IMG/VR virus record: IMGVR_UViG_2534681675_000028
DNA: 34,318 nucleotides
Reading direction: 5' to 3' (one strand)
DNA from: a virus
Lineage: Duplodnaviria > Heunggongvirae > Uroviricota > Caudoviricetes
Shown: one piece after another, positions 6,994-20,002 of the stretch
How the letters are laid out: each line of letters starts with the position of its first letter
Numbering within the stretch: position 1 is the stretch's first letter
The notes under the pieces: model-generated
Seen by the model: the letters and a program-made list of their open reading frames with translations, nothing else
What the model was told of the DNA's origin: nothing
The model's database searches: none
Position numbers and translations under genes: made by a program

Positions 6994-7200
6994 ATGGACC
7001 GGGATGATATTCTTGACAGAATTTTTTATGGCTATTTTCTTGAGCAACTGTTTTCTGTAGCGACTGGTCGTCTCGATAAACTTCTCTCAGTAGTGAGTAT
7101 TATCCTCGGTTCATCTGTCATTGGCGGATTCATTCCGGAAATTTCTGGCGTTTTTATTGTTGTGATCGCAACCGTCCAAACGATTTATGGATTCGGATAA
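6994..7200 (+). CDS. Small protein with C-terminal hydrophobic/transmembrane segment, opposite in orientation to the surrounding early-left genes
   Basis: 68-aa ORF with AGGTGA Shine-Dalgarno 6 nt upstream; AT-rich; C-terminal LLSVVSIILGSSVIGGFIPEISGVFIVVIATV. Confidence 0.35.
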   Translation: MDRDDILDRIFYGYFLEQLFSVATGRLDKLLSVVSIILGSSVIGGFIPEISGVFIVVIATVQTIYGFG

Positions 7201-7215
7201 AAGTCAGGTAATACC

Positions 7216-7440
7216 ATGAGAAAATCCGCAGAATATTTGCAGCTTTTTGATGATGCAGAAAAATATTCTGATTCGGAATTGAAAATTCAGTTAAAAACTC
7301 TGGAAAAAACAGATAATCATATTTGGTCATCACTTAAAGATATTGCGATCTTAAAAACACAGATCAAAATAGGCGTCTCCATCGAACAACAAGAGAAGTT
7401 GCCCACAAAATCCAAATTGATGCGATTTCTTTGTGGTTAG
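7216..7440 (+). CDS. Hypothetical 74-aa protein, second gene of the plus-strand pair
   Basis: ORF with AGGTAA Shine-Dalgarno 5 nt upstream, 15 bp after the previous gene; AT-rich. Confidence 0.35.
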   Translation: MRKSAEYLQLFDDAEKYSDSELKIQLKTLEKTDNHIWSSLKDIAILKTQIKIGVSIEQQEKLPTKSKLMRFLCG

Positions 7441-7529
7441 GAATATCCAGATTGTTAAAGAGCATGCCGGAGGTTTATCCGTGTCCGGCGCACGCACTTC
7501 ATCTGCGGAGAACTACTTGAGCTCATTGG

Positions 7530-7745
7530 TCAGTAGTTTTCAATCACTCGCGAAACGTTTAATGCCGCGCTTTTTGCCAGAGTGGTAATATCCTGCTCCG
7601 CTGACACCAGTTCTTTAGAGAGGCGCTCTTTGTAGTCAGCGGCCTGCTTCAGGTCATTAATGGCGCGTATCTTTCCGCACATCCATTCGTAAATTTCATC
7701 CTCGGTATAGTCTGGTGCGATGATGACGGGTTCTCGTTTCTGCAT
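7530..7745 (-). CDS. Hypothetical early-left protein
   Basis: 71-aa ORF with GAGG Shine-Dalgarno 7 nt upstream. Confidence 0.45.
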   Translation of the reverse strand: MQKREPVIIAPDYTEDEIYEWMCGKIRAINDLKQAADYKERLSKELVSAEQDITTLAKSAALNVSRVIENY

Positions 7746-12585: not shown

Positions 12586-13276
12586 GTGACTGAATTAACC
12601 AAAGAGCAATTAATCGAAGAAGCCAAATTAAAAATAGCGATTGCGAAATGCCACCCCAATTCAGGGATGGCACGGGTAGAGGGCGAGTTATTCAAAATTG
12701 CACTGGCATCGCTGGTAGCAGAACCGCTGGTGCCCGTCATGTATAAAGGAATGAAACTGTTAACAAAAGAGGGGCTTGAGCTTATTCGTGACGGTATTGC
12801 GGAGGCTACGGGACTGGAAGCAATGTGTATGGCTGATGCTTTGCTGTCTGGGGGGGGGGGCAGTGCCGTCAGTGCCGAAAGAAATGTATTGGCAGGATGC
12901 ACCAGTTGAAAGTAGCAGCAAAGCAGCTGCATACGCTACAGGCTGGAAAGCCTGCCGCGAAGCCATGCTTCAGTCCGGAAACTTTCGGGATAATAAGAAT
13001 TCGTCAACCAACAATTTTCGGGAAATCCCGGAAACGTCAACCAGCTCTCAGGGAACTCCGGCTGGCTGGATAAGCTGTAGTGATGCAGTTCCTGCTGAAT
13101 ATTGCGATGTGATTCTGCGCGATGATCTCGGGAATGTATTCCCCGGTTCATGGGATAAGGTTTTTTGCCCCACTCGTGGCGGGAATAAGATGGCTTTTGT
13201 GGACAAAGACGGCGTCGAAGTAGAGAGCTCAACCCACTGGATGCCGCTACCAGAATCGCCGAAGGTGGTGAAGTGA
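12586..13276 (+). CDS. Ea22-like/DUF551-type protein split into two overlapping ORFs (12586-12909 and 12776-13276) at a G11 homopolymer
   Basis: Two ORFs in frames +1 apart meet at the G run 12850-12860; removing one G gives a single ORF (…LLSGGG|AVPSVPKEMYWQ…); C-terminus has the HWMPLPE motif I associate with DUF551. Confidence 0.5.
12850..12860. repeat. G11 homopolymer inside a coding region
   Basis: Direct reading: ctg followed by ten g. Confidence 0.9.
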
Positions 13277-13450
13277 TGGAAAATGAATTCGAAAATGCTA
13301 TCGCCACGGTGCAGCCAAAATCAATAGTTGAGTAGACTTACTCTGAGGCTTGACTACGAGGTTACCATTAGGTGTAATTTAGAGTAAGTTGGTAGCCTCA
13401 GTTGTCGAAGAGGCATAATGGTGATTGTTAGTTGATGCAATAATTAAGGA

Positions 13451-13942
13451 ATGTTAATGCCTACTAATGCTGAACAACCAGTATCAATTAGTAAACCGAA
13501 GACCGTTACACTTCGTGCTTTTGAAATAAAAAACACTGCACTTTCGAAAAGTTCTAGCGAAGCTAAGGCCGATTTGATAGCAAGGCTTAGTCAAGTAAAA
13601 CAGGCAAAAGATAGATGCATGTTGTTAAATCCAGAAGATCCTAAGCAGGAAAGAGATGTTCTTTCGTATTTTAAAGAATCTCCTGTTACTGATTCAGTAT
13701 TTTGCACTATGTTAAGGATTACATCTGACAAAGAAATCCAACACATAACAGATTCTCTTTTTGAGAAAGAGGTCTTTTCTCTGGATGATATAGAAACATC
13801 TCATTTAGATGTGTCAGCAATATGTAAAGGCCATTACTATTTTTGCATGAGTGATGATTTTTTAGTTACAAATCTCCCATTAAATAAAACGATTGTGCGT
13901 TTACAAACGTATCTGAGTTGGTTTACAAATAATGAGCTTTAA
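13451..13942 (+). CDS. Hypothetical protein, gene A of an AT-rich accessory cassette
   Basis: 163-aa ORF; markedly AT-rich relative to flanking phage genes; family not recognised. Confidence 0.5.
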   Translation: MLMPTNAEQPVSISKPKTVTLRAFEIKNTALSKSSSEAKADLIARLSQVKQAKDRCMLLNPEDPKQERDVLSYFKESPVTDSVFCTMLRITSDKEIQHITDSLFEKEVFSLDDIETSHLDVSAICKGHYYFCMSDDFLVTNLPLNKTIVRLQTYLSWFTNNEL

Positions 13943-13957
13943 GAATTCACCCCACTA

Positions 13958-14470
13958 GTGTCAGCAAAAGGGAAAACGAAACTTAGTGATTTAAAAGCCA
14001 TAATCGTTAAAGATCCAGAACCGTTAGTACCGACTGCTATGTGTGATGAGTCTGGTGTTAGAAGTAAAAAGGGAGAAATTACGGTTAGCGAAGGTCATAA
14101 ATCTATCAAGTTAACACAAAAAGTTCTGGATATTATCAGGAGTTCGATGTCAGACTCTGAACAACTTAATGATATGATGCTGAGTCAAATGATTTCTGCT
14201 GAATTGTTAATAAAATTTAAAAAGCCACGCAGAATGACAGATGATGAATATAGTAGAGCTTTAGGGGCTTATTTGAAACCCGTTAGCGATCTTGATAATG
14301 TATCATTTAAGCGAAAAGATAACAAAACAGAAGTGAAAGGCAAGGATTTGCTGTTAACAAAGTCTGTAAGTATTGAAACGACACAGTCAGGTAAATTAGT
14401 TGAGCATCATTTGCTACAAGAGATGAGCAAGTTTTTGCTAGAGTTAAGCAATGAAAAAAATAGCGGTTAG
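13958..14470 (+). CDS. Hypothetical protein, gene B of the cassette; same reading frame as gene A, separated by a single TAA; no evident Shine-Dalgarno
   Basis: 170-aa ORF; in-frame continuation after the TAA at 13940-13942 reads EFTPLVSAKGKTK…. Confidence 0.4.
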   Translation: MSAKGKTKLSDLKAIIVKDPEPLVPTAMCDESGVRSKKGEITVSEGHKSIKLTQKVLDIIRSSMSDSEQLNDMMLSQMISAELLIKFKKPRRMTDDEYSRALGAYLKPVSDLDNVSFKRKDNKTEVKGKDLLLTKSVSIETTQSGKLVEHHLLQEMSKFLLELSNEKNSG

Positions 14471-14912
14471 CGTATTATCAATATTGCTGCTCACATTGTT
14501 GGCTAGTTCAGTCTGGGATGTTCGTCCGGACGGTTTTTTTGCGTCGACAGTTTTTACAATTTCTGGAATAATGTTCTCAATTGGATTAGGGCTAATTGTG
14601 AATTTTAGCACATCCGGTGTAAGGAACCGTGGATACATTCTGCGTATTAGACGTAATGTAATGAGGGTGAGGAATTCATTTCTATTATATTTTGGTTTGT
14701 CGACTTTTTCTTACATAGCAAATCAATATCTTACTGCTTTTGAGTTTTCTTTAACCTTTGGTGATGGTATCAAAACATGTTTTAGCGCATCCATATTCTT
14801 TTGCTTGCTTATAATTTATTCCTCTATATATTTTGTTGTTAATTTTATAGAGTTGCAAAAACTCAATAATGATATTTTTGATAAAGTCAATGCGGAAATA
14901 ACTAACAAATGA
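14451..14912 (+). CDS. Small polytopic membrane protein (about 4 predicted transmembrane helices), gene C of the cassette
   Basis: 153-aa ORF overlapping the end of gene B by 20 nt; four long hydrophobic segments; AT-rich. Confidence 0.55.
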   Translation: MKKIAVSVLSILLLTLLASSVWDVRPDGFFASTVFTISGIMFSIGLGLIVNFSTSGVRNRGYILRIRRNVMRVRNSFLLYFGLSTFSYIANQYLTAFEFSLTFGDGIKTCFSASIFFCLLIIYSSIYFVVNFIELQKLNNDIFDKVNAEITNK

Positions 14913-15123
14913 AATGGCTTTTGTGTGCATGTTAAATAAAGAATACATGGCATCATTTAATGATGTCATGTGTAACGAGCGAAAAGCCTTTTGAACGGTT
15001 TTCATAAGTTATATTGAAAGATAAAATTGCTGCGGGTGCTTGAGGCTATCTGCCTCAGGCATGAACACCAACGGCAGATAGATAAAAGCCCCACCCGACT
15101 ATAAATCGAAGTGAGGCCCCTAT

Positions 15124-15336
15124 ATGCTCGTCACATACAGATTGCCTCTTACGGACCGAAAGGTCAAGGAGAAGCAGGCTATGAAGCAGCAAAAGGCGAT
15201 GCTAATCGCCCTGATCGTCATCTGTTTAACCGTCATAGTGACGGCACTGGTAACGAGGAAAGACCTCTGCGAGGTACGAATCCGAACCGGCCAGACGGAG
15301 GTCGCTGTCTTCACAGCTTACGAACCTGAGGAGTAA
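15124..15336 (+). CDS. mok: mok-like reading frame (N-terminally extended, in frame with hok)
   Basis: ORF in the same frame as hok sharing its stop codon, the arrangement I recall for chromosomal mok/hok pairs. Confidence 0.5.
   Translation: MLVTYRLPLTDRKVKEKQAMKQQKAMLIALIVICLTVIVTALVTRKDLCEVRIRTGQTEVAVFTAYEPEE
15181..15336 (+). CDS. hok: Hok/Gef-family type I toxin (51 aa)
   Basis: MKQQKAMLIALIVICLTVIVTALVTRKDLCEVRIRTGQTEVAVFTAYEPEE closely resembles Hok (…[25 protein letters not shown]…); AGGAG Shine-Dalgarno. Confidence 0.8.
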   Translation: MKQQKAMLIALIVICLTVIVTALVTRKDLCEVRIRTGQTEVAVFTAYEPEE

Positions 15337-15403
15337 GAGACCTGGCGGGGAGAATTCCCTCGCCACCTCTGATGTGTCAGGCTTCCTCAACGCACCCGCA
15401 CTT

Positions 15404-19848: not shown

Positions 19849-19924
<76 letters not shown>

Positions 19925-19927
19925 TAT

Positions 19928-20002
<75 letters not shown>

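Follow-up and report, generated by a model that had tools for sequence, protein, structure and literature searches.

Exclusion by phage lambda requires both RexA and RexB. RexA also has functions that are independent of RexB (PMC11077077), and the authors of its structure ask whether exclusion is its primary function (PMC11077077). Another described pair is RexABpp, encoded by prophage P1 of P. putida (PP_5643/PP_5644; PMC12894663); this pair defends against phage, and an excess of its RexA-like protein arrests growth by way of the membrane partner (PMC12894663). The RexA/RdgC fold is also found in non-defence proteins, such as RdgC and kinetochore subunits; the E. coli RdgC is a chromosomal recombination-associated protein and has neither a membrane partner nor the context of a prophage moron.

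The DNA analysed here, called the window throughout, is a stretch of 34,318 nucleotides from a Caudoviricetes virus (IMG/VR record IMGVR_UViG_2534681675_000028), and it carries a cassette that looks like a distant, unannotated relative of the lambda RexA/RexB exclusion system. The evidence as a whole makes it very likely that a rexA-like gene, belonging to a RexAB-type two-gene cassette, has been cut in this prophage by a T-to-A change at position 13941. The features of the cassette, in window coordinates, are:

13336 to 13401, no strand assigned: two interleaved perfect inverted repeats in the non-coding leader upstream of the cassette, one of 9 nt (ACTTACTCT/AGAGTAAGT) and one of 8 nt (CTGAGGCT/AGCCTCAG)
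13446 to 13450, plus strand: Shine-Dalgarno AAGGA, 6 nt before ATG 13457, as read from the sequence
13451 or 13457 (ATG) to the TAA at 13940-13942, plus strand: ORF A, as read from the sequence
13457 to 14470, plus strand: the whole gene, very likely rexA-like, of 337 codons and a stop; a pseudogene here, with one internal TAA
13457 to 13942, plus strand: 'gene A', codons 1-161 and TAA, giving an 18.4-kDa N-terminal fragment (exact protein P0082)
13940 to 13942, plus strand: the premature TAA, from TTA (Leu162) by T-to-A at 13941
13943 to 14470, plus strand: 'gene B', the orphaned 3' part, codons 163-337, with the frame open to TAG 14468-14470
14138 to 14149, plus strand: AGGAG (14138-14142), a 4-nt spacer and the in-frame ATG 14147, with a predicted C-terminal fragment of 107 aa and 12.2 kDa
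14451 to 14912, plus strand: gene C, an intact gene for a 153-aa small membrane protein, the candidate RexB-like partner

A sequence-only reading of this region had described ORFs A and B as a single frame broken by one TAA, and the frame indeed contains only that one internal stop. About 27 stops would be expected in 338 codons at 35% G+C, the other two frames hold 33 and 49 across the same stretch, and as few stops as observed occurred in 0 of 20000 shuffles, a deficit that points to one long coding frame and not to a chance opening. The cassette stretch has 33-37% G+C, in a region that is otherwise at about 50%. The real start of the large gene is ATG 13457, since the AAGGA motif precedes it and the start called by PGAP in a close relative agrees with it; the intact product has a predicted mass of 38.0 kDa. 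Past the premature stop, five sense codons (GAA TTC ACC CCA CTA) separate the TAA from GTG 13958, which starts 16 nt beyond it and which, like ATG 14039, has no purine-rich Shine-Dalgarno upstream, as had also been noted. ATG 14147 is the only in-frame internal start with a good Shine-Dalgarno and, judged by this motif, the only plausible internal restart, its use being putative; the ORF that begins there is called by some annotation pipelines (P0326).

The nearest relative of the locus is E. coli OkiPb01695 (NZ_AP042570.1, locus L001), which is 99.8% identical and is the only complete E. coli genome with the cassette in the collection searched. It differs from the window at three positions in 1751 nt: position 13941, where it has TTA (Leu) and the window has TAA; position 13920, where it has a W-to-L change at residue 155; and position 14141, where the change is S to G. 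In this genome the PGAP annotation has one CDS of 337 aa, equivalent to 13457 to 14470 of the window, and the large-gene ORF is also intact in loci L002-L005 and L007. More distant homologues were found in a first search of a large protein database, which returned 81 of them, nearly all of 307-357 aa and with a query coverage of 94-100%, from Salmonella, Klebsiella, Enterobacter, Yersinia, Serratia, Photorhabdus and Proteus to Chryseobacterium, that is, from Enterobacterales to Bacteroidota. A profile search against 1.84 billion cluster representatives gave 455 family clusters at 50% identity, and among the best 150 matches listed nearly all were of about 300-345 aa and aligned in one stretch. 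The ORF runs uninterrupted over the whole profile in 75 of 80 IMG/VR loci, the other five being one copy of the same E. coli TAA allele, two frameshifted genes and two genes cut by contig ends. The two frameshifted genes, in L054 (3983-5007) and L097 (3920-4986), lie across two frames, and these apparent frameshifts are either further independent disruptions or sequencing errors.

The premature stop falls inside the conserved motif NNEL-L-EFTP, where it takes the place of the second Leu. Every aligned homologue has a hydrophobic sense residue in this column (L, F, V, I or Y), and next after it come the near-invariant E163 and T165 and the invariant P166. With TTA and one 337-aa CDS in the relative, and with homologues that are single proteins of about 310-350 aa, A and B are almost certainly one ancestral gene of about 340 aa with a nonsense mutation, which had been one of the three explanations put forward for the interrupted frame. 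The check proposed with them was an alignment to homologous cassettes; it was carried out and showed that one long protein is encoded, and homologues consistently divided into two separate genes were not found. The question of whether the cassette is a two- or a three-protein system is thereby answered in favour of two proteins, given that the homologues are not split.

The 170-aa 'B' call is present in the databases on 83 contigs, but it exists only as a gene call, and gene B is not a gene in its own right. Five variants of 'B' had raised the suspicion that an identical split recurs on several backgrounds, which was rejected when the DNA of these loci was found to hold the intact ORF with TTA; the 170-aa calls in intact-ORF loci are annotation artefacts. 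Some B-like and A-like short proteins from elsewhere were likewise considered as natural two-gene forms and discarded, P0296 and P0332 starting 130 and 74 nt from contig ends. As a consequence for annotation, the 161- and 170-aa "hypothetical proteins" of many E. coli genomes should be treated as one pseudogene, and it should be kept in mind that several pipelines call the 170-aa product even where the 337-codon ORF is intact.

The two other explanations that had been offered for the TAA, an error and a readthrough site, did not hold up. The TAA allele is real and derives from a single event in one clonal prophage lineage, as follows from its presence in many assemblies and from seven near-identical loci that carry it. 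If the TAA were an error of sequencing or assembly, the true genome would have the intact 337-codon gene, and a single base is indeed all that separates the window from the intact allele; nevertheless, a 161-aa product identical to that of the window is found on 84 contigs (133 index blocks), which come from numerous independent assemblies, complete chromosomes among them, the TAA is found in all seven retrieved loci and in one IMG/VR locus, and the change is a substitution and not a homopolymer indel. The seven loci are identical to each other over the cassette and 99.97-100% identical to the window over 4.7-6.5 kb, barring one IS insertion in L010, and an error is left with next to no probability. 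Programmed readthrough or suppression would give a low, regulated amount of full-length protein beside the short form, and would agree with a frame that stays open past the TAA without another stop and with the overlap of gene C with the distal end, as if gene C were coupled to full-length translation. However, of the three stop codons UAA is terminated most efficiently in E. coli, none of the homologues has a stop in this L/F/V/I/Y column, the TAA allele is confined to one clonal lineage, and folding of the 120 nt downstream of the stop is not stronger than that of shuffled sequence (z +0.95). A suppressor tRNA was also sought in the window and not found, the only tRNAs there being tRNA-Thr(tgt) and tRNA-Gly(tcc). 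With no conserved stop, no downstream RNA structure and no suppressor tRNA in the window, readthrough is extremely improbable.

Gene C begins 20 nt before the large gene ends, with no more than a weak GAG ahead of its start. For gene C, 93 homologues of about 150 aa were found, several of which share a contig with a homologue of the large protein, and in 78 of 78 informative IMG/VR loci a gene C homologue lies directly downstream of the large gene or overlaps it; the pairing was also seen in Klebsiella, E. coli and Chryseobacterium loci. The protein P0205 (452 aa, from the representative library) is a natural in-frame fusion of large-protein and gene C homologues and supports a direct functional link between the two proteins. 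On the basis of the conserved adjacency and of this fusion, the large protein and gene C form a conserved two-protein unit. The structural model of gene C is helical (pLDDT 87), with four long helices and a beta-hairpin, and its hydropathy profile has three clear hydrophobic segments and one weaker segment. In NZ_AP042570.1, gene C (7151-7613) is left unannotated by RefSeq/PGAP, and a 72-aa minus-strand CDS (7452-7670) is called instead, which is probably spurious in view of the 93 homologues and the conserved synteny of gene C. At 14511-14540, inside the 5' end of gene C and over the conserved RPDxFF codons, there is a hairpin of 7 bp (4 of them GC pairs) with a run of seven T after it, which resembles a terminator. 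A scan of the cassette for promoters and terminators gave site counts equal to chance expectation.

Some likenesses to lambda concern the arrangement of the genes. In both systems a cytosolic protein of about 280-340 aa is followed on the same strand by a multi-pass membrane protein of about 145-153 aa, and in many relatives of the cassette, including that of Escherichia phage PhiR68_2, the pair is located directly downstream of cI and co-oriented with it, as in lambda (PDB 8TWQ; PMC11077077). The order in PhiR68_2 is O, cII, Cro and then, divergently, cI, a 341-aa gene and a 149-aa gene, with Gam and Bet further on, and the position of its pair is the rexA-rexB slot of lambda. In 26 of 87 loci a repressor of the cI/LexA type is found on the same strand at most 400 nt upstream, and in about 15 more it overlaps or lies further upstream. 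The Chryseobacterium pair has DarT, the ADP-ribosylglycohydrolase partner of DarT and a UvrD helicase as neighbours. In the window, no repressor adjoins the cassette, which, unlike the lambda pair, is placed in a nin-type region with a DUF551 gene on one side and hok/sok on the other, and which has a broken large gene. Further differences are that the two cassette genes overlap, whereas those of lambda are 15 nt apart; that the large protein is about 60 aa longer than RexA and has a disordered linker of about 30 residues; and that gene C, of 153 aa, has three strong hydrophobic segments, where RexB (about 144 aa) has four TM helices. RexBpp, compared by its description, is longer, with at least 181 residues against 153 (PMC12894663). 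A megablast search against a phage collection gave no match, and tblastn gave two phage records only.

Homology to lambda RexA/RexB was rejected at the level of sequence. The large protein of the window and gene C had no match in Pfam, PADLOC, PHROGs or NCBIfam, while, as a control, the PADLOC Rex models recognised lambda RexA (9e-110) and RexB (8.6e-61), and the PHROGs Rex models also recognised the lambda proteins. The hhalign probabilities were 0.1 against RexA and 0.5 against RexB, which gives no sequence-level link, and a PDB sequence search with the large protein was empty. For the P. putida protein, HHpred linked RexApp to RexA (PMC12894663), whereas hhalign did not link the window family to lambda RexA. 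A search with a profile of distant family members toward RexApp returned 14 matches, almost all of them unnamed.

Likeness to RexA is found in the fold. An AlphaFold2 model of the intact large protein, built from a 75-sequence alignment (pLDDT 77, pTM 0.72), has an N-terminal domain of seven strands (residues 15-184), then a linker that is disordered (190-219), and a C-terminal part with four strands, several helices and a final long helix (316-336). The protein has the elements of the RexA/RdgC-type fold, namely a globular domain of seven strands, a dimerisation domain of four strands and, at the C-terminus, a returning helix. Foldseek gave low TM-scores to RexA (0.33-0.38), which would fit a different relative orientation of the domains, and the match to E. 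coli RdgC (PDB 2OWL) is at the level of the fold only, with 8% identity. A search of BFVD with the gene C model returned no RexB, only uncharacterised proteins. The fold of the large protein, together with genomic position, marks the family as a remote RexAB-type system that occupies lambda's rexAB slot in other temperate phages. With its 455 clusters the family is sizeable, and it is absent from Pfam, PADLOC, PHROGs and NCBIfam. It extends the range of a classic exclusion system for which the mechanism is not yet settled, and both intact and broken natural alleles are on hand for direct testing.

By analogy with lambda RexAB and P. putida RexABpp, a Rex-type abortive-infection mechanism is rather probable for this cassette. 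The cassette would be a moron of temperate phages that encodes a 337-aa protein of the RexA/RdgC fold and a membrane partner of about 150 aa. The large protein, as a cytosolic DNA-binding dimer, would sense an infecting phage and would then activate the membrane partner, gene C, whose product would damage or depolarise the membrane, so that growth stops and the infection is aborted. In the window, translation would end after residue 161, inside the N-terminal domain, and the product would, according to the model, be without the final two strands of its N-terminal sheet, the entire presumed dimerisation domain and the helix at the C-terminus. The 18.4-kDa fragment A is unlikely to fold or function, because the stop lies within a conserved structural block, and not in the variable linker 190-219, and two strands of the sheet and everything downstream are gone. 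On this structural evidence, the sensor gene of the window is probably dead and exclusion lost. Gene C may be affected as well: its weak GAG and the family-wide overlap with the end of the large gene suggest that it probably relies on translational coupling, which a premature stop 510 nt upstream would abolish, and Rho-dependent polarity on gene C is possible.

Other readings concern the function of the unit and the fate of the broken gene. It is unlikely, though less so than any other alternative considered here, that the two-gene unit, though real, serves something different from abortive infection, for example mainly the tuning of the lysis-lysogeny switch or a superinfection block at the membrane, the RexA-like fold then reflecting general DNA binding only. 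Such a reading is favoured by the lack of sequence homology to RexA or RexB, by a likeness of gene C to RexB that its fold did not confirm, by the occurrence of the fold in non-defence proteins and by the question that the authors of the RexA structure themselves ask about exclusion (PMC11077077). On the other hand, rexAB is mirrored in the order and sizes of the genes, in the membrane partner and in the cI-adjacent position, the Chryseobacterium pair lies beside DarT, and the comparably remote RexAB-type pair of P. putida does defend against phage (PMC12894663). A functional split of the large gene, in which A and a re-initiated B (from GTG 13958 or ATG 14147) would act as subunits or the N-terminal fragment would have a new role, making in effect three proteins, is very unlikely. 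The TAA allele does make up about half of the sampled E. coli copies, GTG 13958 is close enough to the stop for termination-reinitiation, ATG 14147 has its good AGGAG, and lambda RexA has functions that do not depend on RexB (PMC11077077). Against these points, the stop is placed in a conserved structural block and not in the disordered linker, the sheet of fragment A would be two strands short, neither GTG 13958 nor ATG 14039 is preceded by a Shine-Dalgarno, and no other lineage is so divided, the apparent cases being artefacts. In addition, near-identical E. coli copies are disrupted independently and at other sites, in a way that resembles decay: L023 has a CAA-to-TAA change at Q150 (Q150*), and L006 has a deletion of 1 nt from a run of four A (A4) near codon 30.

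The same disruptions led to the proposal that the break is not neutral decay, but that selection on lysogens favoured the silencing of a costly, self-toxic Rex-type sensor and the retention of gene C or the N-terminal fragment for a separate role. The OkiPb01695 allele also belongs here: it has Leu at the near-invariant Trp155, 21 nt upstream of the window TAA, while the window keeps the ancestral Trp, and this W155L change, found on 20 Logan contigs and in sampled loci with the 170-aa call P0085 (32 contigs in total), may be another route, through missense, by which function was reduced. Gene C is intact in both alleles. Selected silencing is proposed on the grounds that L162*, Q150*, the 1-nt deletion and W155L cluster in the sensor gene while gene C stays intact and that the TAA allele accounts for about half of the copies, and it gains plausibility from lambda, where RexB and RexA each have functions independent of the partner; it is quite improbable all the same, and the commonness of the TAA allele in public assemblies could reflect either the sampling of one clone or a retained or new role. 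If selected silencing were true, the RexAB-type family would offer a natural setting in which to study what abortive-infection genes cost and how they decay. The reading preferred here is that the feature is an ordinary nonsense pseudogene in a clonal prophage lineage. As in other prophage pseudogenes of this kind, one clonal lineage has acquired a premature stop by a single-base change while intact alleles remain in circulation, and decay is also seen in the neighbours, with a DUF551 gene frameshifted at a poly-G tract and a hok annotated as frameshifted in the relative; nothing material differs.

Several observations were made in the surroundings of the cassette. In the non-coding leader, the order of the arms bars the two inverted repeats from pairing together in a single hairpin, and the repeats may be regulatory, acting as an operator or as alternative structures. 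The IS of L010 is inserted between their arms, just upstream of the cassette, at the equivalent of window positions 13361-13365. The window itself has an IS element at its left end (1-1320), with HTH_Tnp_1 and rve transposase genes, and the IS inserted in L010 (AP025751.1, 1585-2904) is a copy 99.8% identical to it. Upstream of the cassette, the poly-G tract of the DUF551 gene (G11, 12850-12860) lies within the ORFs 12586-12909 and 12776-13276. Among near-identical prophages the tract has between 9 and 13 G, G10 giving an intact 229-aa gene (L001 and L010) and G11 the frameshift of the window; this variation could be real hypermutable slippage or homopolymer assembly noise. The two tRNA genes of the window, tRNA-Thr(tgt) and tRNA-Gly(tcc), are at 19849-20002, in the late-regulatory region downstream of the Q antiterminator, and the relative has these two annotated as well. 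The cassette is followed directly by a hok/sok type I toxin-antitoxin system (15034-15183 and 15124-15336; Rfam sok, 102.9 bits, and a Hok family match), whose hok is the one annotated as frameshifted in OkiPb01695. The cassette and hok/sok together form a module (13231-15396) that moves between different lambdoid backbones.
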